From an uncultured Candidatus Saccharibacteria bacterium (GTDB taxonomy: Bacteria > Patescibacteriota > Minisyncoccia > Phycocordibacterales > UBA2100): a DNA stretch of 35,280 nt. The stretch's first letter is position 1; each line of letters begins with the position of its first letter. The stretch is taken from the NCBI GenBank assembly GCA_964350885.1, contig CAYGKV010000007.1, forward strand, positions 1 through 35,280. Direction: 5' to 3'. A program made the position numbers and the translations under genes. Shown in pieces: positions 2,133 through 34,907 of this stretch. The notes under the pieces were generated by a model. That model was not told where the DNA came from. It saw nothing but the letters and a program-made list of their open reading frames with translations, and made no database searches.

Positions 2133-2237
2133 CTAAAGGACTGCGATTTGCAAGCAACCGCGTTGCTCTTGGGCAAATCGGGAGCCTTAGAGAGAAATAT
2201 AGCCTAAAATAGGAAAAAATGGTACTTTGTCACGACT

Positions 2238-2322
2238 GGAGAGGTGGCTGAGTGGTCGAAAGCACCGGTTTCGAAAACCGGCATACCGCAAGGTATCGGG
2301 AGTTCGAATCTCCCCCTCTCCG
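2238..2322 (+). tRNA. tRNA-Ser (anticodon CGA), class II long variable arm, no encoded CCA
   Basis: GGAGAGGTGGCTGAGTGG...CCGGTTTCGAAAACCGG...GGGAGTTCGAATCTCCCCCTCTCCG. Acceptor GGAGAGG/CCTCTCC, anticodon loop TTCGAAA. Confidence 0.9.
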
Positions 2323-2484
2323 AGCGAGCGTCGCGAGTGAGGAGAAGCGCGGTGCCTGCGCATCGTGTGTGGGGGATTCGAAAAGCGGAGCGATGTCGAG
2401 CCAGAAGGCGAGACCGCGAGCTGGGGCTGCGACCAAGGCGAGTGACGACGAGCCGAGAGTCGTGGCCGAATCTCCCCCTCTCCG
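2323..2484 (+). repeat. tRNA-3'-linked GC-rich module (Ser copy) ending in an 18-nt direct repeat of the tRNA-Ser T-loop-to-discriminator segment
   Basis: cgaatctccccctctccg occurs at 2305-2322 (inside the tRNA) and again at 2467-2484. The 144 nt between them share a core with the Leu(UAG) module (2369-2398 vs the reverse complement of 26121-26150, 27/30). Confidence 0.8.
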
Positions 2485-4510: not shown

Positions 4511-5338
4511 ATGAGTCGGAATTTTCGGGAGCTTCTGGAAAAACAGTGGGAGCAAGGAAGATTTTTGTGCGTGGGGCTTGATAGCGATTTTGAAAAAATC
4601 CCCGAATCAGCACGGGGTAAGGGAGTCCGCGAGACCATCGTCGGATTCAACCGCGCCATCGTGGATGCGACCAAAGACCTTGTATGCGCCTACAAGCCCA
4701 ATTCCTCGTTTTATGAGGCGTATGGAGATGAGGGTTTTAGCGCTCTCCGAGAAACGATCCAATATATCCACGAAGCAGCACCTGATGTTCCGGTCATTTT
4801 AGATGCTAAGCGCGGAGATATCGGAAATACAAACAACGGGTACGTTCAATCCGCGTTCGATTACTTGCATGCGGACGCGATAACGGTGCAGCCATATATG
4901 GGAGGGGAATCACTCAAAGAATTTCTTGCGCGTGAAGAAAAAGGGATCTTTGTATTGTGCAAAAATTCCAATTCTGGCTCGGGAGAGTTTCAGGATCTTG
5001 AGGTGGATGGGCGTCCTCTCTTTGTTCATGTTGCGCGTGCGTTTGCAGAAAAATGGAACACGAATCAAAATTGCGGGCTTGTCGTTGGCGCCACGTACCC
5101 TGCGGATATCAAGCGCGTCCGTGAAGTAGCTCCAGAGATGCCGCTTCTTATACCAGGAATCGGAGTGCAGGGGGGAGATTTGGAGCAATCCGTTAAAAAT
5201 GGGAAGGACGCGCGCGGCAGAGGGTTTATTATCTCTACGGCGCGAACGATCATTTATGCGTCCAACGGTCCTGATTTTGCAGAGGCCGCTCGCAAGAAAG
5301 CCACAGAGCTTGATAGCGCAATACGCGCGGTGTTCTGA
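4511..5338 (+). CDS. pyrF: Orotidine 5'-phosphate decarboxylase (long/type 2 form)
   Basis: 275 aa with LCVGLD and DAKRGDIGNT active-site motifs. Confidence 0.9.
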   Translation: MSRNFRELLEKQWEQGRFLCVGLDSDFEKIPESARGKGVRETIVGFNRAIVDATKDLVCAYKPNSSFYEAYGDEGFSALRETIQYIHEAAPDVPVILDAKRGDIGNTNNGYVQSAFDYLHADAITVQPYMGGESLKEFLAREEKGIFVLCKNSNSGSGEFQDLEVDGRPLFVHVARAFAEKWNTNQNCGLVVGATYPADIKRVREVAPEMPLLIPGIGVQGGDLEQSVKNGKDARGRGFIISTARTIIYASNGPDFAEAARKKATELDSAIRAVF

Positions 5339-5430
5339 AAAGCTTCGCTTTTACTGCTTGCGTCACTCGGCAATGAATACACACACGTCTTCATTGCGCT
5401 CGTTATCCTCAGCAGATAAGATACTTCGAT

Positions 5431-13435: not shown

Positions 13436-14659
13436 CTAGGCAAGTGCTTCCGCGCGGCCGCCGATGCGGCGGCGGCGGAGGTAGTTGGATAATTCGGGGA
13501 GAGGAATCGCGTCTTGTGAATTTGTGGCGACTTCGCGCACGAGTATCGTCCCCTCCATCGCTTCTTTGTGTCCCATGATGATGATGTATGGCACCGCGAG
13601 CTCGCGCGCGGCGTTCATCTGCTCCGCCATGCGCTCGTACCAGAGACCTTGGTGCACTGGGATCATTGCCCGTCGCAGGCTCTCGAGGACCGAGATTGCG
13701 CGCCTGCGTGCTTCGTCACCGAGGTGTGCAAAATAAATTGCTGGCTGCGCTTCTCCGCTTCCGGCGCGCGCCTCGCGCTTGGGCCGCGTCTTACCGCGCA
13801 CTTCGCAGGTGATTGAAACAACCGCAGCCGATGCGGGCGATTGTGCAAAGCGGCTTGCGAGCGGATCATAGCGTCCACCGAATGCGATTGGCATATGGGT
13901 GCCACTCTCAGTGTCTGGAGTTGATATCTCAAACAACGAATGCGACCAGCAGTCGCGGCTCCCGAGGATGTGAGCGTTTAATTCATACGGCAGACCAAAC
14001 ACCTCAAGGTATTCGAGGAATTCCCAAAATCTTCGGCGCTCTTCTTCGGTCAAATATTCCATCGCCTGTGGTGCACGTGAGATTGCCGGATGGCCTCGCT
14101 CGATGAGTTGCACGAGTGTGCCTAGGGGATCGCTCGCTGCGCGCGGACGAAGCGTTGTCGATATGGACTCGATGTGTTTGCGCAAATACAATCCCACATC
14201 GCGGACATATCTATTGGATGAATCGGGCGATCCTATGTTGTTGACGCTCAGCACACGCTCCTTGATCCCGCCCTCTTCCGCAATTGCATTCGCGACGATG
14301 ACGAGGAGTGCCTCTGCGACGGCACTTCCCGGCCCGACGATATGCAGCTCAAACGTTATGGTCGGGATTACGGAGGTGTTGTTGAGAATTCGCCACGCGA
14401 GCACCGCACCATCTTTCTTCTCCGACAAAAGGCATTTGCGCGCCGAAGAGAGGAGCGGTCTCTCGTCGCGTCGTGCAAACGATACTTCAGATTCTACTTT
14501 CGAAAGTGGCATGATCGGTCGTCGCGTTACGCCGAGCTCTGGAGCGGCGGCGCGCGCCATTTCTTCAAGCGGAGAAAATCCGTAATACTCGGCGATTCGA
14601 ATAGCAGATCCTAGGAATGACGCAGTATTGGCATGCTGAGTGTCCTTCAGTCTAATCAT
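13436..14659 (-). CDS. Histidyl-tRNA synthetase-like class II protein (divergent; motif 2 degenerate)
   Basis: 407 aa. GGRYDPL (HisRS motif-3/HisB-like) and a C-terminal anticodon-binding-type domain (IYFAHLGD...PYIIIMGHKEAMEGTILVREV). The N-terminal motifs are poorly conserved by eye. Confidence 0.65.
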   Translation of the reverse strand: MIRLKDTQHANTASFLGSAIRIAEYYGFSPLEEMARAAAPELGVTRRPIMPLSKVESEVSFARRDERPLLSSARKCLLSEKKDGAVLAWRILNNTSVIPTITFELHIVGPGSAVAEALLVIVANAIAEEGGIKERVLSVNNIGSPDSSNRYVRDVGLYLRKHIESISTTLRPRAASDPLGTLVQLIERGHPAISRAPQAMEYLTEEERRRFWEFLEYLEVFGLPYELNAHILGSRDCWSHSLFEISTPDTESGTHMPIAFGGRYDPLASRFAQSPASAAVVSITCEVRGKTRPKREARAGSGEAQPAIYFAHLGDEARRRAISVLESLRRAMIPVHQGLWYERMAEQMNAARELAVPYIIIMGHKEAMEGTILVREVATNSQDAIPLPELSNYLRRRRIGGRAEALA

Positions 14660-14668
14660 AATATCTGA

Positions 14669-15286
14669 TTATTGTTCGGAAGAAGCGGATATGTTGGTCG
14701 TGTACGTAAATTGCGCGGGAAGGATGCCGATCTCTTGAAATGGATACAAACGAAACAGCACGCGCCCCACGATTTCTTCGCGCGGCAGAGCTCCCCACAT
14801 GCGAGAGTCGGATGAGACGCGGCGATTGTCGCCAAGAACAAAAAATTCGTCTTGATCGAGGGTGACACGCATATCGCCTACGCCACCTTGATTGGCTGGA
14901 TCGAGGTACGGCTCGGGAAGCGTGAAGCCTTGAAGGTTTTGCTCGTTGATAATGCTGATGCGAGAGCCCGAAAGCACGATGGTCTCTCCGGGGAGGCCGA
15001 TAATTCGCTTGATCAAGGCGCGGCTCGTATTTTGAGGGAGGTCGAAGATGATAATGTCGCCACGATGAGGCTCGGTAAAGTCGTATGACACGCGATCAAC
15101 GATCAAGTACTGCCAATCTGAGAAGTTTGGTTCCATCGAAGCTCCTTGAACGACGTATGGTGCTGCAATAAAGAAGCGGATGAAGAGCGCGAGACCGAGC
15201 GCAACCACGGTGTAGCCGAGCAATGAACCCTGCGAACCTTTTTTAATTTCCGGTGATGAATTTTCTTGCATCACGGGATCATTCAT
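14669..15286 (-). CDS. lepB: Signal peptidase I
   Basis: N-terminal TM, catalytic Ser box GASMEPN, Lys box IKRIIGLPGE, and GDNRRVSSDSR. Confidence 0.9.
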   Translation of the reverse strand: MNDPVMQENSSPEIKKGSQGSLLGYTVVALGLALFIRFFIAAPYVVQGASMEPNFSDWQYLIVDRVSYDFTEPHRGDIIIFDLPQNTSRALIKRIIGLPGETIVLSGSRISIINEQNLQGFTLPEPYLDPANQGGVGDMRVTLDQDEFFVLGDNRRVSSDSRMWGALPREEIVGRVLFRLYPFQEIGILPAQFTYTTNISASSEQ

Positions 15287-22414: not shown

Positions 22415-23767
22415 ATGAAAAGACTTTCAATATTTCAGATCATCCTTTTGGTTTCCTTCGGCAGTCTCGCGGTCGCCGGAGTGCTTGTATTTGCACTTGC
22501 CGTGGGAGGAGGGCAAACCAACACCGTTGGTTCCATTACGATCTGGGGGACTCTCGACAAGGCTGCGTTTTCGGCCGTTCTTCGAAGCGCGTCTCAAGAG
22601 GTTCAAGAGTTGAAACAAGTGACGTATGAACAAAAAGATCCAACGACATACGAAAGCGAGCTTACGAATGCGCTCGCGAGCGGTACGGGCCCTGATCTTT
22701 TCCTCATGCGACAGGATTATGCGCTCAAGAATAGTGGCAAGGTCTATCCCGTGCTCTTCTCTGTGTTTTCACAAACCAATTTTGAGAGCACCTTTATCGA
22801 ATCTGCAAAGACGTTTCTTATACAGGATGGTTTTGTAGCCGTCCCTTTGCTCGCCGACCCTCTCGTTTTCTATGTCAACAAGGACCTGCTTGCTTCTGGG
22901 GGATTTGCAGAGCCACCAAAGTATTGGGACGAGCTCTTCAACATATCTAAGAAACTTACGAAAAAAGACGACTCTGGGTCTATCATACAGTCCACTATTG
23001 CACTTGGTGAATATCAAAACGTACCATATGCAAAAAACATCCTTGCAACCCTTATTCTTCAGGCGGGGGGTTCTGTTACGAGACGCGACGTAGGGGGAAA
23101 TTTAATATCAACTCTTACGCCTAAAGAGGGAGAGAATTCGCAAGCCGCTATCTCCGCCCTCCGTTTCTTTACCGAATTTGCCGACCCATCGAAAGATTAT
23201 TATTCCTGGAATCGCTCGCTTCCAGACGCGCAAAAGGCATTTTCTGCAGGCGATTTGGCATTCTATATCGGCTACGCGAGCGAATCGTCTTTTATTTCTC
23301 GCACGAATTCAAACCTTAATTATGTTGTTGCGCCTTTGCCGCAGATTCGTCCTACTCCAAATACTTCCGGCACTGTCCTCAGCACGGCGCGCGTCTATGG
23401 GCTGGCAGCTTCTCGCACTGGTAAAAATCCCGGAGGAGCCATCACGGTTGCATTTATCCTCGCGGATAAAGTAAATTCTAATTCACTCTCATTTGCGCTA
23501 GGGCTTTCCCCCGCACGAACAGATGTTTTGAAAGCGCTGGAACAAAAAAGTACTCGGGCAGCGTCGTTGCTTCCCGATACTATTTGTAAGGGACAAGATG
23601 TTGCGCTCTGTTCGACCATCTTTGCCCGATTTTGGCTTGATCCTGATCCCGAAAAGACAGATCAGATATTCCGCGGTATGATTCAAAATACGACGAGCGG
23701 GGCACTGCAAGTCAGAGAAGCAATCCAGCGTGCAGACCAAGAGTTTGGGCAACTCTTAAAGCAATGA
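22415..23767 (+). CDS. Membrane-anchored extracellular solute-binding protein (ABC family-1-like), orphan
   Basis: 450 aa with an N-terminal TM. The overall pattern (GPDLFLM, PLLADPLVFYVNKDL, YWDELF) fits sugar-type SBPs. No permease or ATPase gene is adjacent. Confidence 0.7.
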   Translation: MKRLSIFQIILLVSFGSLAVAGVLVFALAVGGGQTNTVGSITIWGTLDKAAFSAVLRSASQEVQELKQVTYEQKDPTTYESELTNALASGTGPDLFLMRQDYALKNSGKVYPVLFSVFSQTNFESTFIESAKTFLIQDGFVAVPLLADPLVFYVNKDLLASGGFAEPPKYWDELFNISKKLTKKDDSGSIIQSTIALGEYQNVPYAKNILATLILQAGGSVTRRDVGGNLISTLTPKEGENSQAAISALRFFTEFADPSKDYYSWNRSLPDAQKAFSAGDLAFYIGYASESSFISRTNSNLNYVVAPLPQIRPTPNTSGTVLSTARVYGLAASRTGKNPGGAITVAFILADKVNSNSLSFALGLSPARTDVLKALEQKSTRAASLLPDTICKGQDVALCSTIFARFWLDPDPEKTDQIFRGMIQNTTSGALQVREAIQRADQEFGQLLKQ

Positions 23768-24129
23768 AAAACCTCAAACGCATCACACGATACTTTTTTG
23801 TAAGCGCTGCGAGTCTCGCCTTTGTGTTTTTCGCACAGGGAGTAACCGCACAAACACGTCTTGAGAATCCTTTGGATTCCAGCTTTAGTGACATTCCTTC
23901 GTTTATCGCGGGGGCGCTCAAGGTATTGGTCATGGTGGCACTTCCTCTGATCGCGCTTTTCATCGTCGTCGCGGGATTCATGTTTATCAAAGCGCGAGGG
24001 AACCCGAGTGATCTCACAAAAGCAAAAGATAACTTCTTGTACGTCATCATCGGGGCCTTGCTCATTCTGGGTGCGTGGGTGATAGCGACATTGATCAGCG
24101 GCACGGTCTCGCAGCTTCTTGGAAGGTGA
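23764..24129 (+). CDS. TrbC/VirB2-like (T4SS-pilin-like) small two-TM protein
   Basis: 121 aa. Signal peptide, LENPL motif, and two TM helices flanking KARGNPSDLTKAKD. The start overlaps the SBP stop (ATGA). Confidence 0.7.
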   Translation: MKNLKRITRYFFVSAASLAFVFFAQGVTAQTRLENPLDSSFSDIPSFIAGALKVLVMVALPLIALFIVVAGFMFIKARGNPSDLTKAKDNFLYVIIGALLILGAWVIATLISGTVSQLLGR

Positions 24130-24130
24130 T

Positions 24131-24442
24131 ATGAGACAGGTATTTGTCATTGCTACTAGTCTCCTTATTGCGTCTCCTGCGTTAGCGCTTGCTGCGCCGC
24201 GCACCTTCCAAGAACTCTCGATTAAGATTGTTGAGCTTATTAATCTCACGATTCCCGTGCTGATTCTCGCCGGGATCGTAATCTATCTCTATGGAGTTTC
24301 TACAAATATTCTAAACTTCAGTGACGACAGTAGAGAAAAGGTCAGAGCGTATTTCTTCTGGGGGATCGTCATATTGTTTGTTATGCTCTCCATTTGGGGC
24401 ATTTTGAATCTTCTCAAAAACACATTCCTTTCGGTAAGTTAA
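24131..24442 (+). CDS. Small secreted/two-TM protein, paralogue family with C-terminal SIWGI..LL.NTF motif
   Basis: An ATG 1 nt after the previous stop (TGAtATG). Signal peptide ...ALALAAP. C-terminal motif FFWGIVILFVMLSIWGILNLLKNTF. Confidence 0.65.
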   Translation: MRQVFVIATSLLIASPALALAAPRTFQELSIKIVELINLTIPVLILAGIVIYLYGVSTNILNFSDDSREKVRAYFFWGIVILFVMLSIWGILNLLKNTFLSVS

Positions 24443-24444
24443 TC

Positions 24445-24873
24445 ATGTGCGCGCTGCTCCATTCAAATCGCATGGAATATTTCACTCGCTTCATACCTTC
24501 GATGATCGCGCTTGTGGTCGCCTTGCCCATGTCGGCGGCCGCGCTCGGTCTTTCGCATGTAATCGGATTTTTCAATATTTTCGTGGGTCTTATGCTGGCT
24601 ACGGCGCTCGTTCTCTACGGTACGGGATTTATTATGTGGCTATGTCGATTGGGGACGTGGCCTTCGTATCGTACTGAAGCGCTTAGGATCATGGAGTGGT
24701 CGGTTGTTGTGCTTTTTGTTCTCGTAGTTCTTCTTGCTATAGTGCAATTTTTCCAAGGTCATCCGCGGACTGCTTCATATGTCGTCTCGACGATCGTGGT
24801 TCTTCTTGTTGTCGGCGGCGCTCTATTTGCCGCTGCAAAAAGCGGTGAAAAAAAAGAGGAAAAGAAACGCTAA
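24445..24873 (+). CDS. Hypothetical four-TM membrane protein with Lys/Glu tail
   Basis: An ATG 2 nt after the previous stop. 142 aa, hydrophobic, C-terminal SGEKKEEKKR. Confidence 0.55.
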   Translation: MCALLHSNRMEYFTRFIPSMIALVVALPMSAAALGLSHVIGFFNIFVGLMLATALVLYGTGFIMWLCRLGTWPSYRTEALRIMEWSVVVLFVLVVLLAIVQFFQGHPRTASYVVSTIVVLLVVGGALFAAAKSGEKKEEKKR

Positions 24874-24892
24874 TTTATCCAGCCTGGCCCAC

Positions 24893-25135
24893 CGCGTCAG
24901 CCTCCGGCTGACACTCGACCCGCCTAAAGGCGGGCGCACTCGCGTGCGGGTTCGCCCGCACATGCTTGTGCGTGCATAACACTCTCGCATCAGCCTTCGG
25001 CTGACACTCGACCCGCCTAAAGGCGGGCGCACTCGCGTGCGGGTTCGCCCGCACATGCTTGTGCGTGCATAACACTCTCGCATCAGCCTTCGGCTGACAC
25101 TCGACCCGCCTAAAGGCGGGCGCACTCGCGTGCGG
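24893..25135 (+). repeat. Head-to-tail tandem repeat, 93-nt unit x about 2.7, hairpin-rich, intergenic
   Basis: Units at about 24893-24980, 24981-25073 and 25074-25135 are identical except for 1 nt. Each full unit carries hairpins cagccttcggctg, cccgcc-taaa-ggcggg and gtgcggg-ttcg-cccgcac. Confidence 0.9.
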
Positions 25136-25212
25136 TGTTATCCACACGCGGGGCGGGGAAGGCTATTGTCTTTTGAGCCCCTGCTTATACCATTGAGAGT
25201 ACCTTAGAATAA

Positions 25213-25572
25213 ATGAGTAATCCTAATATTATGAAGAAACATGTTGTCGGTATTTCTGCGTTGATGCTTGTGTTTCCGGCTCTTGCGAGCGCGCAGGACT
25301 TTACCGGTACTCTTATCACCATTAGTAGCGTGCTGAATGCCGCGATAGGTATTTTTGTTACACTTGCAATTGTCGTCTTCTTCTGGGGTCTCATCCAGTA
25401 TCTGGTGAATGTGGGTGAGGAAAAAGCCAAGGGTCTATCGATCATGTTTTACGGTGTCGTCGCGATTTTCGTCATGGTTTCTATCTGGGGCATCATCCGC
25501 CTCCTCCAGAACACCTTCAAGGTTGGCAATACCACTCCTATCATTCCGGGCGGGATTTACTATAGGCCGTAG
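25213..25572 (+). CDS. Small secreted/two-TM protein, same paralogue family (SIWGI..LL.NTF)
   Basis: 119 aa. Signal peptide ...PALASAQ. C-terminal MFYGVVAIFVMVSIWGIIRLLQNTF. An alternative start exists at 25231. Confidence 0.65.
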   Translation: MSNPNIMKKHVVGISALMLVFPALASAQDFTGTLITISSVLNAAIGIFVTLAIVVFFWGLIQYLVNVGEEKAKGLSIMFYGVVAIFVMVSIWGIIRLLQNTFKVGNTTPIIPGGIYYRP

Positions 25573-25668
25573 GTGGTCGGATAGGGGCCTGGGATCGGTC
25601 ACTGACTCGGATGTTCAGCATGCATTCTCTCCAAAATCTAATAGATCAATGCTAGCTAGTCTTTCTTC

Positions 25669-25986
25669 ATGGATGCGATAGGCGACGTAATGCAGCGATT
25701 TGAGGAATTCATCATCGTCCCTGCGATAATGATAGTTTTTGCGGCAGGATTCCTCCTTTTTATATGGGGGCTTGTGGAGTTTTTGTGGAAACTAAACGAG
25801 GGAGGGGACAACAAAGAGGGAAAGTCGCACATGCTGTGGGGTATCGTGGGCATGTTTATCATGGTGTCTGTCTACGGCATTCTCAGCATACTCGACAACA
25901 CCTTCGGTCTCGATTTCAGAAATCCTGACGTCGGTCGCTCTCAGACCCAGACGGTCGTATCACCGGATTTTGGCGGCCCGCGCTGA
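25669..25986 (+). CDS. Small two-TM protein, same paralogue family
   Basis: 105 aa. C-terminal MLWGIVGMFIMVSVYGILSILDNTF matches the two paralogues above. Confidence 0.6.
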   Translation: MDAIGDVMQRFEEFIIVPAIMIVFAAGFLLFIWGLVEFLWKLNEGGDNKEGKSHMLWGIVGMFIMVSVYGILSILDNTFGLDFRNPDVGRSQTQTVVSPDFGGPR

Positions 25987-26000
25987 GGGGCACGTATATG

Positions 26001-26195
26001 TGGGCAGAGGGAGACTCGGTCACGAATAATTTGTTCGCCGCCGCTCACAAATTTTCTCGACGCCTATCGATCTTGATAGGCACCTGTGGACGGCCCGGCT
26101 CGCGGTCGCGCGTGCTCGCGCGACATCGCTCCGCCTTTCGAGACCCCCACGCCGCATGCGCAAGCATGCGGCTTCTGTCTCACTCGCCTTGCTCG
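26001..26195 (-). repeat. tRNA-3'-linked GC-rich module (Leu-UAG copy) ending in an 18-nt direct repeat of the tRNA 3' part
   Basis: tgggcagagggagactcg occurs at 26196-26213 (tRNA) and at 26001-18. The 177 nt between them contain the conserved cores and the hairpin at 26028-26053. Confidence 0.8.
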
Positions 26196-26277
26196 TGGGC
26201 AGAGGGAGACTCGAACTCCCATCCCTCGCGGGACCAGCTCCTAAGGCTGGCGCGTCTACCAATTTCGCCATCTGCCC
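26196..26277 (-). tRNA. tRNA-Leu (anticodon UAG), no encoded CCA
   Basis: Reverse complement GGGCAGATGGCGAAATTGGTAGACGCGCCAGCCTTAGGAGCTGG...GGGAGTTCGAGTCTCCCTCTGCCCA. Anticodon loop CTTAGGA, long variable arm. Confidence 0.9.
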
Positions 26278-26440
26278 GAACGTTTCTATCCTAGCACGGC
26301 ACATGTCGTCACAGATAATTCCTTCGCCGTCGCTCAGGAATTTCCGCGACCCCGGCTCGCGGCTCGCCCTGCTAGGCTCGCATCGCTCCGCCTCGGACAA
26401 AAGCAGAAAATCTCCAGCAGTGGAGATTTTCAGTCTTTTG
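26278..26440 (-). repeat. tRNA-3'-linked module (Lys copy): terminator-like hairpin plus conserved cores; no terminal tRNA repeat
   Basis: Contains catcgctccgcct (26381-26393), cccggctcgcgg (26351-26362) and the conserved-loop hairpin at 26317-26342. Fills the whole Lys to Leu(UAG) spacer. Confidence 0.7.
26407..26430 (-). terminator. Terminator-like hairpin just 3' of tRNA-Lys
   Basis: aaaa-tctcca-gcag-tggaga-tttt: a 6-bp stem flanked by A/T runs on both sides. Confidence 0.55.
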
Positions 26441-26513
26441 TCCGCCCACCAGGGATCGAACCTGGGACCCACTGCTTAAGAGGCAGTTGCTCTACCAGCT
26501 GAGCTATAGGCGG
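26441..26513 (-). tRNA. tRNA-Lys (anticodon CUU), no encoded CCA
   Basis: Reverse complement CCGCCTATAGCTCAGCTGGTAGAGCAACTGCCTCTTAAGCAGTGGGTCCCAGGTTCGATCCCTGGTGGGCGGA. Acceptor CCGCCTA/TGGGCGG, anticodon loop CTCTTAA. Confidence 0.88.
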
Positions 26514-26551
26514 AGTATGTGGGGATTCTACAGGAAACTATCGATTTATAA

Positions 26552-26728
26552 AGTGCCGGGGGTGGGACTCTGCTAAGAACACTTTTTCTCGCCGCCGCTC
26601 AAAAAAGTTTCTCAGCCCTGCTCACGCGACCCATACTGCTGCACGGGTCCCCGCGCTCGCCTTCTCGTCCCACTCCGAGCAAAGCCATTAGCAAAACCGG
26701 AGACAGGCTCTGATTTTGAATGTCTTAG
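26552..26728 (-). repeat. tRNA-3'-linked GC-rich module (Leu-UAA copy) ending in a 19-nt direct repeat of the tRNA 3' part
   Basis: agtgccgggggtgggactc occurs at 26727-26745 (tRNA 3' end plus 2 nt) and at 26552-26570. The interior carries ctcgccttct (26656-26665) and the hairpin at 26581-26608. Confidence 0.8.
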
Positions 26729-26812
26729 TGCCGGGGGTGGGACTCGAACCCACACGTTCTTTCGAACAATTGATCTTAAGTCAATTGCGGCTACCAATTA
26801 CGCCACCCCGAC
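26729..26812 (-). tRNA. tRNA-Leu (anticodon UAA), no encoded CCA
   Basis: Reverse complement GTCGGGGTGGCGTAATTGGTAGCCGCAATTGACTTAAGATCAATTG...GTGGGTTCGAGTCCCACCCCCGGCA. Anticodon loop CTTAAGA. Confidence 0.9.
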
Positions 26813-27287
26813 GTCCTCTATTTTTACCACGATGTGTGGGTTTTAAGCTATGGCAGTTGGGACAAAGGATCCGGAGGTTCTCAATGCGGTTATCGTGACG
26901 GTCTCCATTAATGTGATCAAGCTCAAGGGGTAATCTATCATTCTCAGCTCTCTGTGCCCACTTACATTCCTCGCAGTGTTGGGGCTTTATGCCCTCGGCA
27001 AAAAGCCTTTTCTTTAACTTGTAGCTCTGGTACGTACTATCTTTGACGAGGATTTGAGATGTTGGAATAAGTGGCATTATTCTGCCGCGCAACCCTTTGT
27101 TCCAGGCCTTGCCTTTGAAATGGGAAATGTCGAGTGCTAGATTTTTAACATATTGCCTAACGTGCTCGTAGTTCCCACCTGCCTGAACAAGGCCGATCTT
27201 TGCGATCACTTGCCGAAAGCTGAAAGAATCCTTAACTGCATTAACTAGTTGCTTCTCAGTCCAACGGTGTTTTCTCCGCATCGCCAT
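26781..27287 (-). CDS. HNH endonuclease (free-standing, homing-endonuclease-like)
   Basis: 168 aa with LELDHINGDRHDNRIENLRILCPNCH (the HNH/His-Me finger with a Cys pair) and an N-terminal putative DNA-binding region. The last 10 codons plus the stop lie inside tRNA-Leu(UAA). Confidence 0.85.
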   Translation of the reverse strand: MAMRRKHRWTEKQLVNAVKDSFSFRQVIAKIGLVQAGGNYEHVRQYVKNLALDISHFKGKAWNKGLRGRIMPLIPTSQILVKDSTYQSYKLKKRLFAEGIKPQHCEECKWAQRAENDRLPLELDHINGDRHDNRIENLRILCPNCHSLKPTHRGKNRGRRGGVIGSRN

Positions 27288-34256: not shown

Positions 34257-34339
34257 GCGTCGGTGGCAGAGTGGTCAAATGCACGTGGCTGTAAACCACG
34301 CGACTTCGGTCTCCGCAGGTTCGAATCCTGCCCGACGCA
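34257..34339 (+). tRNA. tRNA-Tyr (anticodon GUA), class II long variable arm, no encoded CCA
   Basis: GCGTCGGTGGCAGAGTGGTCAAATGCACGTGGCTGTAAACCACGCGACTTCGGTCTCCGCAGGTTCGAATCCTGCCCGACGCA. Confidence 0.9.
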
Positions 34340-34474
34340 CTCGGTGCAAAAGACGTCCCTTGGGGACGTTTTTTGTGCAGAGATATGAGGATTCGAACCG
34401 CGGGCCGCAGCTCCCGACGAGGGGGCGAAGGTCTCGAGCGCAGCAGCGCGAGAGGCGAATCCTGCCCGGCGCAC
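34340..34474 (+). repeat. tRNA-3'-linked module (Tyr copy) ending in a 17/18 direct repeat of the tRNA-Tyr 3' part
   Basis: cgaatcctgcccgacgca (34322-34339) vs cgaatcctgcccggcgca (34456-34473). The interior holds a weaker partial copy (ggattcgaacc 34389-34399 ... cccgacg 34413-34419) and the hairpin at 34432-34453. Confidence 0.75.
34347..34375 (+). terminator. Rho-independent terminator directly after tRNA-Tyr
   Basis: aaaagacgtcc-cttg-ggacgtttttt: a stem followed by a T-run. Confidence 0.7.
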
Positions 34475-34502: not shown

Positions 34503-34907
34503 ATGACTCGGAAGTACTCGAACTGGTTTGTGGTGCTCGCGCTCCTTTTTTGCATGGCCCCCTCGCTTGCATTCGCTGCTCCGACCGGTGGTCTTGCAGG
34601 TCAAATTGTCCCAGAAGAGTGTAACGAAGTGGGTGGATGTAAATCGATCTGTAGTATTGCAGTCCTCGCTAGCAACGTCCTCAACACGGGTATTTATGTC
34701 ACGGTATTTCTTTCTGCCGTGCTCTTTGCTTGGGCGGGATGGCTGTATCTGACCGGTGTTGCAGGGAGTGATTTAAATCGCGCCAAGGAAATTTTCTTTA
34801 ATGTCGTCGTCGGCCTCGTCATTATCCTCATCGGCTGGCTCGTGGTGGATACGCTTATACGGACGCTGACGGGCAGCAAATTGGGCATGTGGAACGAGAT
34901 CTGCTGA
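34503..34907 (+). CDS. TrbC/VirB2-like (T4SS-pilin-like) small two-TM protein
   Basis: 134 aa. Signal peptide ...SLAFAAP, a Cys-rich IVPEECNEVGGCKSIC segment, and two TMs flanking TGVAGSDLNRAKE. Confidence 0.7.
   Translation: MTRKYSNWFVVLALLFCMAPSLAFAAPTGGLAGQIVPEECNEVGGCKSICSIAVLASNVLNTGIYVTVFLSAVLFAWAGWLYLTGVAGSDLNRAKEIFFNVVVGLVIILIGWLVVDTLIRTLTGSKLGMWNEIC

Follow-up and report, generated by a model that had tools for sequence, protein, structure and literature searches.

A candidate family of miniature insertion elements without open reading frames at tRNA gene ends in Saccharibacteria

tRNA genes, terminal repeats, and modules

We analyzed a stretch of 35,280 nucleotides (nt), here called the window, which corresponds to positions 69111-104390 of a 147.7-kb metagenome contig whose nearest genome relatives are uncultured Candidatus Saccharibacteria; flanking sequence was taken from the same contig. 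ARAGORN and Rfam identified seven complete transfer RNA (tRNA) genes and one truncated by the window end. Several of these genes are followed on their own strand by a noncoding module that ends in a second copy of the tRNA 3' part, and these modules are the subject of this study. An initial annotation of the window had described four such repeats, all of which were recovered by direct reading of the sequence: Ser, 2305-2322 and 2467-2484 (18/18); Leu-UAG, 26195-26213 and 26000-26018 (19/19, rather than the 18/18 first given); Leu-UAA, 26727-26745 and 26552-26570 (19/19); and Tyr, 34322-34339 and 34456-34473 (17/18, with a G/A mismatch at tRNA position 69). These four repeats start at C56 or G57 of the T-loop and end at the discriminator or 1 base past it, with 116-177 nt between the copies. 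Chance is excluded as their origin, since an exact 18-nt repeat recurs within 200 nt.

The initial annotation also considered the module interiors to be homologous although the tRNAs differ. This holds for the Ser and Leu-UAG modules, which were 78% identical over 83 nt in a repeat search, but could not be extended to the Tyr module, which has no match to the covariance model (R1) described below. Two shared words that it listed are present, namely, cccggctcgcgg at 26094-26105 and 26351-26362, the second occurrence lying inside a tRNA-Lys module, and agaaggcgag at 2403-2412, with its reverse complement at 26656-26665. Its count of four modules was correct as far as it went, but incomplete. A fifth module lies behind tRNA-Lys and went uncounted because its terminal repeat is only 3 nt long (GAC), and a sixth lies behind tRNA-Leu(CAA), 1.6 kb past the window end (L007, 11817-11995). 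Approximately half of the 13 tRNA genes seen on the contig bear a module. The parts of the five window modules are listed here, with the evidence for each in parentheses; P1 to P4 and X are described in the sections that follow.

2237-2323, plus strand: tRNA-Ser(CGA), target gene (ARAGORN, Rfam tRNA, sequence)
2305-2322, plus strand: tRNA-Ser proximal block, last 18 nt, C56 to G73 (sequence)
2323-2466, plus strand: whole Ser element (R1 match, fold, sequence)
2323-2346, plus strand: Ser trailer, conserved AGCGAGCG..GAGTGAG (sequence)
2347-2368, plus strand: Ser P1 hairpin, CTGC loop (fold)
2371-2380, plus strand: Ser X, GGGGGATTCG, complementary to CGAATC(T)CCCCC (sequence)
2381-2384, plus strand: Ser AAAA linker (sequence)
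2385-2466, plus strand: Ser core with P2, P3, and P4, terminating in GTGGC (R1, 81.7 bits)
2467-2484, plus strand: Ser distal copy, C56 to G73, followed by native flank and interpreted as the displaced resident tRNA 3' end (18/18 to 2305-2322)
26195-26277, minus strand: tRNA-Leu(UAG), with proximal block 26195-26213 (ARAGORN, Rfam, sequence)
26019-26194, minus strand: Leu-UAG element including trailer (R1 match, 83-nt 78% match to the Ser element, fold z = -5.3)
26151-26172, minus strand: Leu-UAG P1 hairpin, TTGC loop (fold)
26139-26148, minus strand: Leu-UAG X, GGGGGTCTCG, 7/10 complementary to CGAGTCTCCC (sequence)
26019-26134, minus strand: Leu-UAG core with an extra hairpin within P4, terminating in GTGAC (R1, 47.6 bits at 26041-26134)
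26000-26018, minus strand: Leu-UAG distal copy, C56 to A73 plus C (19/19 to 26195-26213)
26440-26513, minus strand: tRNA-Lys(CUU) (ARAGORN, Rfam)
26305-26439, minus strand: Lys element of the "simple" class, junction 2 nt before the tRNA 3' end (R1, sequence)
26406-26431, minus strand: Lys P1 (plus trailer), terminator-like hairpin, CTGC loop (terminator scan)
26395-26403, minus strand: Lys X, CTTTTGTCC, complementary to GGACAAAAG, i.e., tRNA end plus trailer (sequence)
26308-26391, minus strand: Lys core (R1, 83 bits)
26305-26307, minus strand: Lys 3-nt repeat GAC (sequence)
26728-26812, minus strand: tRNA-Leu(UAA), with proximal block 26727-26745 (ARAGORN, Rfam, sequence)
26571-26726, minus strand: Leu-UAA element, divergent B subtype (R1, 29.9 bits, E = 0.002; fold)
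26681-26725, minus strand: Leu-UAA trailer and P1 (sequence, fold)
26667-26680, minus strand: Leu-UAA X, GCTCGGAGTGGGAC, complementary to GTCCCACCCCCGGC with two mismatches (sequence)
26572-26654, minus strand: Leu-UAA core (R1)
26552-26570, minus strand: Leu-UAA distal copy, G57 to A73 plus CT (19/19 identity)
34257-34340, plus strand: tRNA-Tyr(GUA), with proximal block 34322-34339, A at position 69 (ARAGORN, Rfam, sequence)
34340-34455, plus strand: Tyr element, C type (sequence, fold, signature search; no R1 match)
34347-34375, plus strand: Tyr P1, terminator-like (sequence, fold)
34387-34395, plus strand: Tyr X, GAGGATTCG (sequence)
34398-34455, plus strand: Tyr body, GC-rich, two hairpins (sequence, fold)
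34456-34473, plus strand: Tyr distal copy, G at position 69 (sequence, comparison with relatives)

The R1 score of the Leu-UAG element is lowered because of the extra hairpin inserted in P4. The Leu-UAA element is approximately 90% identical to the Leu-CAA element across trailer, P1, and X. The only close relative found for the Tyr module was the module behind tRNA-Trp in a related genome (L012). Because R1 fails to detect either of these two modules, their homology to the others is not demonstrated, and we treat the Tyr module as a separate C type that shares the layout of the other modules.

Module anatomy and a covarying core

Modules are approximately 130-250 bp long. In tRNA sense, the proximal block is followed by the trailer, P1, X, a linker of 2-4 nt, and the core, with the distal block immediately after. 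P1 is a covarying stem with a recurrent CTGC loop and is terminator-like in many copies. The core of approximately 82 nt has the form GCGGAGCGAUG-P3-CCGCGAGCCGGGG-P4...GUGAC, with its final base abutting the junction; in tRNA sense it reads GCGGAGCGATG, the P3 hairpin, CCGCGAGCCGGGG, the long P4 hairpin, and yGTGAC. The apex of P4 is a GACG loop, often beside tandem G.A.

Helices P2, P3, and P4 were tested in an alignment of 62 distinct cores (A2) against 500 shuffles and against slid partners. Paired cells amounted to 91.9% compared with 70.2% in the shuffles, none of which (0/500) reached the observed value, and to 28-43% when the partners were slid. There were 415 double-change cells, compared with 105 in the shuffles, and the covariation score was 0.573, compared with 0.181 for shuffled and at most 0.166 for slid partners. 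Double changes were found in 22 of 30 pairs, and compensatory changes affected all seven P3 pairs and 15 of the 19 P4 pairs. G47.U84 is a wobble in all 62 copies, and G49.U82 varies between GU, GC, and AU. On the opposite strand, mismatches would replace both the wobbles and the tandem G.A; the fold therefore belongs to the gene-sense strand, as RNA or single-stranded DNA (ssDNA). Together, these data show selection on the core helices as well as folding of the gene-sense strand.

The initial annotation had proposed building a covariance model. Such a model, R1, recovered the Lys, Ser, Leu-UAG, and Leu-UAA elements of the window, with scores falling in that order from 83 to 29.9 bits. Divergent copies found with the model retained only, roughly, CGGAG..ATG, GAG.CGGGG, and GTGAC.

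Family size, hosts, and targets

A gapped core pattern gave at least 120 matches in metagenome contigs from groundwater, soils, and sediments, and the A2 profile located 109 copies in 99 of the pattern-matched loci. A same-strand tRNA gene lies at most 250 nt upstream of 76 of the 109 copies (70%), with 16 amino-acid identities represented, compared with a chance background of 3.2% of positions at that distance downstream of a tRNA. The link to tRNA genes in the initial annotation applies to these copies, but others lie behind a transfer-messenger RNA (tmRNA) gene, behind a topA-like gene, or elsewhere. The upstream contexts of the remaining copies were as follows.

tmRNA: 1 copy
topA-like gene end: 7 copies
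another copy, in tandem: 4 copies
contig start too close to judge: 9 copies
other: 12 copies

The tmRNA target, in L029, was confirmed by Rfam, and two further copies end in a tmRNA-type 3' end. Stacked insertions were present in L071, L023, L041, and L128, and in L071 and L011 successive insertions had piled up displaced ends. The family is widespread and apparently undescribed, and it possibly extends beyond Saccharibacteria to other bacteria like those of the candidate phyla radiation, as judged on sample type alone (groundwater small-size fractions, soils, and sediments). One contig that bears a module without tRNA association (L103) also contains a group II intron D1-D4 fragment (4699-4811 and 5086-5385) just downstream of the 16S rRNA 3' end.

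Junction classes and replacement of the gene end

Three junction classes were observed, with block lengths from 3 to >66 nt. The Ser, Leu, and Tyr modules of the window belong to the T-loop class, whose block extends from position 56 through the end of the tRNA, with a replacement copy of 18-20 nt. In the "simple" class, represented by Lys in the window and by many copies in metagenomes, insertion takes place 2 nt short of the tRNA 3' end; the replacement copy measures 2-3 nt, and the repeat is confined to N72-N73-C74, 3 nt such as CAC or GAC, depending on the tRNA. In the topA class, the block comprises the final ~66 nt of a topA-like coding sequence plus the stop codon. The constant C56/G57 start given in the initial annotation is accurate for the four repeats that it listed but not for the family, which also uses tRNA 3'-end and topA junctions.

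The topA class distinguishes the two copies. Comparison of the proximal with the distal copy at five loci gave 48 synonymous and 11 nonsynonymous codon differences; at a sixth locus the two are identical. The upstream copy is in frame and functional, and the downstream copies retain their own C-terminal tail, stop codon, and terminator, with a 1-nt indel exactly at the junction. Since the differences are mainly synonymous, the two copies diverged as working genes in different lineages, which argues that a foreign gene end was brought by the element and the resident end displaced. The copies are ~55-85% identical with short identical runs, and yet the block always starts directly after GTGAC, which argues for a site-specific event and against RecA recombination or fill-in duplication. 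These observations show that the proximal copy is element-borne, that the distal copy is resident, and that the crossover occurs at a fixed place beside the core. Thus, the copy that the element brings restores the target gene, and the fragment that it displaces comes to lie at its far end, as in integrative islands of tRNA and tmRNA genes.

The initial annotation had suggested, as one of its candidates, a mobile element that produces an 18- to 19-nt target duplication; block lengths of 3 to >66 nt and the orthologue-like divergence of the topA copies contradict this. A fixed staggered-cut duplication of the casposon or CRISPR-like type is likewise excluded by the variable block length and the synonymous-biased divergence. 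We also rejected the template and variable repeats of a diversity-generating retroelement, since bases other than adenine also differ and a reverse transcriptase is absent.

Occupied and empty sites in related genomes

Empty sites, for which the initial annotation had recommended a search, were found in relatives of the window. The comparison genomes L011, L012, and L013 are related Saccharibacteria (IF-2 79-85% identical) with a largely common tRNA neighborhood. The tRNA-Tyr, Leu-UAG, Leu-CAA, and Lys genes are empty in L012, as are the tRNA-Leu-UAA and Trp genes in L011. Occupied sites are Lys in L011, Leu-UAA and Trp in L012, and Tyr in L013, and several of these modules are of another subtype than the window module at the same tRNA. 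At tRNA-Tyr, the window and L012 share an orthologous downstream pilin-like open reading frame (ORF), with a module in the former and an empty site in the latter. Position 69 is G in the window distal copy and in tRNA-Tyr of all three relatives and A in the functional copy; the distal copy is therefore the resident or ancestral version. On this comparison of genome sequences, the results show that the modules are insertions that are polymorphic between genomes.

L011 contains further rearrangements. At 14512-14783, an old tRNA-Leu(UAG) is split between D-arm and variable arm by inserted DNA that comprises a complete, quite different tRNA-Leu(UAG) plus a B-type module and is flanked by a GTCCCG repeat, so that here the inserted DNA replaces the entire tRNA. 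Downstream of its Lys module, at 14443-14480, lies a third, decayed tRNA-Lys 3' half that starts from the anticodon loop and resembles the trace left by an earlier insertion at the anticodon-loop sublocation.

Two observations were made in sister samples. In L010 (175-290; sample ERZ27247837), tRNA-Tyr and its module occur with the acceptor 5' strand GGGCAGG instead of GCGTCGG and with a different upstream context; this variant is either a recombinant strain or an assembly chimera. The short contigs L002, L003, L005, and L006 start within the T-arm of tRNA-Ser or precisely behind its distal block, and assemblies therefore tend to break at modules.

Segment X is complementary to the junction

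Every class has a segment of 9-12 nt, X, which lies four bases ahead of the core and whose sequence complements the junction, reaching 2-4 nt to its left and over the first 6-10 nt of the block. The initial annotation had seen the repeats but missed both this segment and the covarying three-helix core. In T-loop elements, X is the reverse complement of T54-N65, e.g., GTGGGACTCGAA for TTCGAGTCCCAC; in topA elements it mirrors GACGAAAACTA; and in "simple" elements it mirrors the final 4-5 nt of the tRNA together with the trailer of the element itself. Where the two block copies differ, including at topA, X perfectly matches the proximal copy. The complementarity is imperfect in some elements (Leu-UAG, 7/10; L042).

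The X segments of the Leu-UAA and Leu-CAA elements differ by one base, which compensates a T-stem change, and a second T-stem change is kept as G.U. The two tRNAs are not recent paralogues, despite the similarity of their modules from trailer to X. The Ser and Leu-UAG elements have GTGGGGG(A/T)(T/C)TCG in common. This compensation and this common sequence suggest that X is inherited and adapting rather than recopied at each insertion. Copying of X from the target by fold-back synthesis was rejected, as the topA X mirrors merely the first 9-11 nt of a 66-nt block and some X segments are imperfect.

Searches for proteins, parents, and known families

No ORF was found inside the elements. The initial annotation's statement that the window lacks an integrase extends to its surroundings, since neither the window nor the 10 kb on either side contains an integrase, transposase, or recombinase domain; the only nuclease-like ORF in this region is an HNH gene. 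ORFs within 2.5 kb of the elements clustered into housekeeping genes and a LAGLIDADG-like ORF (four loci), with no recurrent recombinase. This LAGLIDADG-like ORF, present in L130 (182-937) and at three other loci near module-bearing tRNAs, encodes 252 amino acids with an N-terminal helix-turn-helix and the motif LMLYVAEGDK.

Among ~110 copies, none had a distal block partner more than ~300 nt upstream, barring low-complexity and internal topA repeats, as would mark an autonomous version, and no autonomous parent with the same ends was found in IMG/VR or in phage or plasmid collections. The gapped core pattern had 0 matches in IMG/VR viral contigs, the 22 viral contigs that shared a 16-mer were all rejected by the model, and BLAST against phages and plasmids gave no match. 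Rfam 15 contains no family for the module, its only matches at the gathering score being to tRNA, tmRNA, rRNA, and the group II intron fragment, which is unrelated. With E values of up to 10 allowed, the modules still matched none of its introns or ribozymes. Literature searches returned no description of the family, only general literature on tRNA-gene islands and tRNA gene fragments. All of this agrees with the initial annotation, which did not recognize a described repeat family. Promoter and terminator scans were uninformative except for the terminator-like P1 behind tRNA-Lys.

Discussion

We interpret the modules as a family of miniature, site-specific integrative elements that lack ORFs and carry a replacement gene end, and we put the probability of this reading at roughly 0.6. 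The searches show that the elements encode no protein. The attL/attR-type footprint recognized in the initial annotation is supported by topA, with a foreign orthologue as the upstream copy and the displaced resident end as the downstream one. Among the explanations that it offered, a nonautonomous element mobilized in trans is the best supported, given the polymorphism, the >100 copies, the topA class, and searches that found neither an ORF nor an autonomous relative.

On insertion, the resident gene end would be pushed downstream and left as the distal repeat, and the target gene would stay intact because the element supplies the gene end. The element may move as, or be recognized in, a folded single strand, either RNA or the sense DNA strand. 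In the modeled arrangement, the X-target helix, P2-P3, and P4 would form a three-way junction that sets the left junction beside the paired 3' end of the element, and through this junction X would supply target specificity. Strand transfer might be carried out by an enzyme encoded elsewhere or by the fold itself. Occupied alleles would probably also spread by natural transformation and homologous recombination, and an element could be lost through recombination between the two block copies.

A more specific proposal, which we advance only tentatively, is that core and X constitute a nucleic-acid-guided integration system in which X pairs with an arbitrary junction and the GUGAC end is placed adjacent to it. 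Core and X would then recruit a host or helper enzyme or would themselves catalyze strand transfer, and such an element could live inside essential genes because it carries a replacement gene end. A sequence-specific integrase is unlikely, since one core family serves dozens of unrelated targets and the only constant part of the crossover is the element's own end, and an internal strand complementary to the target fits base-pairing recognition in a single-stranded form. Whether the modules are a minimal, protein-less, retargetable element distinct from integrase islands, bridge-RNA insertion sequences, and introns is in our estimate doubtful.

Several observations weigh against the reading of the modules as integrative elements. 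The case for mobility is drawn entirely from comparative data. Because a sequence pattern served as the seed of A2, the unpaired stretches look more invariant than they are, partly by construction. Copies within one genome are divergent, with different P3 and P4 helices and compensatory changes, which fits long-lived selected elements better than a recent transposon burst and leaves room for a host RNA function. In the helix between X and the distal block (P0), G.U outnumbers A.C by only 15:7, a count that as a gauge of selection at the RNA level is not decisive and is confounded by divergence between donor and resident. X of the "simple" class is not purely a target guide, since most of its pairing is with the trailer of its own element and only 4-5 nt are paired with the tRNA. 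Finally, elements at a new tRNA (Leu-CAA, Leu-UAG) have a proximal block of the new target's type, which the carried-copy model explains only through later correction or separate horizontal acquisition.

An alternative that we consider unlikely, but that accounts for several of these points, is a structured trailer RNA that serves the host on tRNA, tmRNA, and topA transcripts in processing, termination, stability, or protein binding. The strong strand-specific covariation and the invariant G.U wobble would suit such an RNA, as would the divergent paralogues that keep their structure within one genome, the often terminator-like P1, and the presence of modules at about half of the contig's tRNA genes. 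It would have spread by ordinary recombination or DNA uptake, with the repeats as by-products of Campbell-type or allelic recombination, a route that we likewise do not favor; Saccharibacteria are reported to be naturally competent (PMC10187176), which would assist it. However, close relatives lack the module at the same tRNAs and carry modules at others, indicating that it is dispensable at each locus, and the topA crossover always falls at the left edge of the block in copies that are ~55-85% identical, unlike RecA recombination. Moreover, T-loops, tRNA 3' ends, tmRNA, and an ORF have no common processing pathway, and in the T-loop class X is complementary to the tRNA's own T-arm and would hinder tRNA folding.

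It is improbable that the modules are intron-like RNAs, in which the segment from proximal block through core would be removed and the left junction base joined to the distal block, and equally so that X acts as an internal guide that pairs with the 5' junction before switching to the 3' exon. X does span the junction and can pair with either block copy, the end of the core coincides with the distal junction, P4 being stacked on the helix of X and block, and the fold is RNA-sense with a conserved G.U. Nevertheless, 82 nt is far below any known self-splicing core, the Rfam intron and ribozyme searches gave no match, and splicing is unnecessary because the unspliced gene is already complete. In many copies a terminator-like P1 would halt transcription ahead of the core, and the distal topA copies have a frame-breaking indel at the junction.

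Still less probable are scars of integrase-borne prophages or islands that have been almost entirely deleted, leaving attL and attR close together. Blocks running from the T-loop or anticodon to the 3' end and tmRNA targets are classic for tyrosine-integrase islands (PMC4383910), and L011 has older, larger rearrangements at tRNA-Lys and tRNA-Leu. Such scars would not be expected to yield >100 copies of uniform, compact layout with the core flush against the distal block, or RNA-type covariation where att arms should lie; no copy has kilobase-scale content between its blocks, none was present in the viral contigs, phages, and plasmids searched, and one core family at dozens of unrelated targets is unlike a sequence-specific integrase.

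Decayed tandem tRNA gene duplicates, for which the initial annotation had named interiors alignable to a full tRNA as the telltale sign, are scarcely credible: some copies hold a stretch identical to the 5' acceptor plus the T-stem 5' strand (L011 Lys, CCGCCCA ... GTAGG), but the interiors are homologous across different tRNAs and not to their own tRNA, the modules have no match to the Rfam tRNA model with E values as high as 10, acceptor complements stay at chance level, and the same core occurs behind tmRNA and in a protein gene end. In 20 T-loop-class copies, the best match to the acceptor-strand complement averaged 5.05/7, compared with 4.97/7 in mismatched pairings, and perfect complements occur in some copies (L011 Lys, L061). 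A tRNA-like minihelix or decoy, also among the candidates of the initial annotation, was rejected as a family feature, as the acceptor complement is at the level of shuffled pairings.

The insertion-element interpretation invites comparison with known systems. The T-loop and 3'-end sublocations of tRNA integration were reportedly set out by Williams in 2002. Islander presents a catalogue of islands integrated into tRNA and tmRNA genes via tyrosine integrases (PMC4383910). Like the modules, such islands split their target and restore it with an element-borne copy, leave a displaced resident fragment at the far end, target T-loops, tRNA 3' ends, tmRNA, and the 3' ends of conserved protein genes, and accumulate in tandem. 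In contrast, they measure 5-100 kb, compared with 130-250 bp for the modules, which contain neither an integrase nor any ORF. One integrase family uses one or a few related att sequences, whereas the modules are found at 16 tRNA identities, tmRNA, and topA with three junction positions, and islands have no counterpart to the covarying strand-specific core fold or the internal junction-complementary segment.

Cis-mobilizable elements (CIMEs), as in the Streptococcus ICESt family, are att-flanked nonautonomous elements mobilized in cis or trans by a related integrative and conjugative element (ICE). They resemble the modules in having attL/attR-like flanking repeats, no recombination genes, and a presumed dependence on a helper. 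Unlike the uniform, minimal modules, for which no parent was found among ~110 copies or in the viral, phage, and plasmid collections, CIMEs are kilobase-sized deletion derivatives that share the att sites of an identifiable ICE. Miniature inverted-repeat transposable elements (MITEs) and repetitive extragenic palindromic sequences (REPIN/REP) are, like the modules, short, noncoding, hairpin-rich, multicopy, and intergenic behind genes. Two MITE traits are absent from the modules: there are no constant terminal inverted repeats, the left boundary being target specific and only the right end (GTGAC) constant, and no target duplication of fixed length, the blocks being 3, 18-23, or at least 66 nt long with orthologue-like topA copies. 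Copies of MITEs and REPINs are near-identical, whereas modules diverge within each genome and keep a strict orientation and position relative to the target gene.

The nearest mechanistic analogies, if they hold, are with bridge-RNA IS110, guide-dependent IS200/IS605, folded attC, and the CTX-phage attP hairpin, although none of the defining proteins or sequence signatures of these systems is present in the elements or recurs beside them. IS110/IS1111 elements use a bridge RNA, and in IS200/IS605, subterminal hairpins and short guides define ssDNA cleavage sites. As in both groups, the modules carry target-complementary sequence and a strand-specific fold; their 3' end (GUGAC) is paired to an internal strand at the foot of a hairpin, and their choice of target evidently does not depend on a fixed DNA-binding specificity. 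They differ in having no recombinase or TnpA within the elements or among recurrent neighbors, no Rfam match, and an X that lies outside the core, beside the three-way junction. We know of no guide-dependent system of the IS110/IS1111 or IS200/IS605 type that carries a replacement gene end or long direct repeats.

A folded single strand is the recombining form of integron cassettes (attC) and of the CTX-phage attP hairpin. The modules are similar in that the unit begins with the sequence right of the crossover and ends in a fold whose 5' arm is complementary to the sequence after the crossover, and in forming tandem arrays. However, attC boxes are conserved (R''/R', RYYYAAC/GTTRRRY) and bound by IntI, whereas the paired segments of the modules (X and block) differ at every target, and the targets are gene 3' ends instead of attI or dif. 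Group I introns in tRNA genes share with the modules their location in conserved RNA genes, guide pairing across the junction, and conserved RNA-sense structure; the module core is far too small and matched no catalytic core, and in the modules a duplicated gene end, rather than splicing, preserves the function of the gene.

If the interpretation as integrative elements is correct, small-genome Saccharibacteria and related bacteria would hold an abundant, unannotated class of mobile DNA, for which ~150 bp without any protein suffice to carry out the island strategy of restoring the interrupted gene. This would explain why such genomes contain stray tRNA 3' fragments and why their assemblies break at tRNA genes, annotation would gain a new conserved structured element, and base-pair-guided site selection would have a concrete candidate; genome engineers would take an interest in a minimal, retargetable module for integration. 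Should the core instead be a host RNA, it would still be a new, widespread structured RNA on tRNA, tmRNA, and topA transcripts.

Other features of the window

A conserved TTTCCTGTAGAAT motif with a promoter-like match precedes tRNA-Lys both in the window (26525-26552, minus strand) and in L012, where it comes after the Leu-UAA module, which suggests that clustered tRNAs have their own promoters despite the intervening modules. The HNH endonuclease ORF mentioned above (168 amino acids; 26781-27287, minus strand) lies between tRNA-Cys and tRNA-Leu(UAA), and its last ~11 codons and stop codon overlap the first 32 nt of the tRNA-Leu gene. Because L011 and L012 lack a gene there, the HNH gene is itself an insertion beside the tRNA.

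A run of small ORFs with TrbC/VirB2-type pilin domains of type IV secretion systems (T4SS; PF18895/PF04956) is present at 23764-25986, and a further orthologous pilin-like ORF is located at 34503-34907, just behind tRNA-Tyr. Between small T4SS-pilin-like ORFs, at 24893-25171, are three head-to-tail GC-rich units of 93 nt (100, 98, and 73% identity) that have no R1 match and each form several short hairpins.

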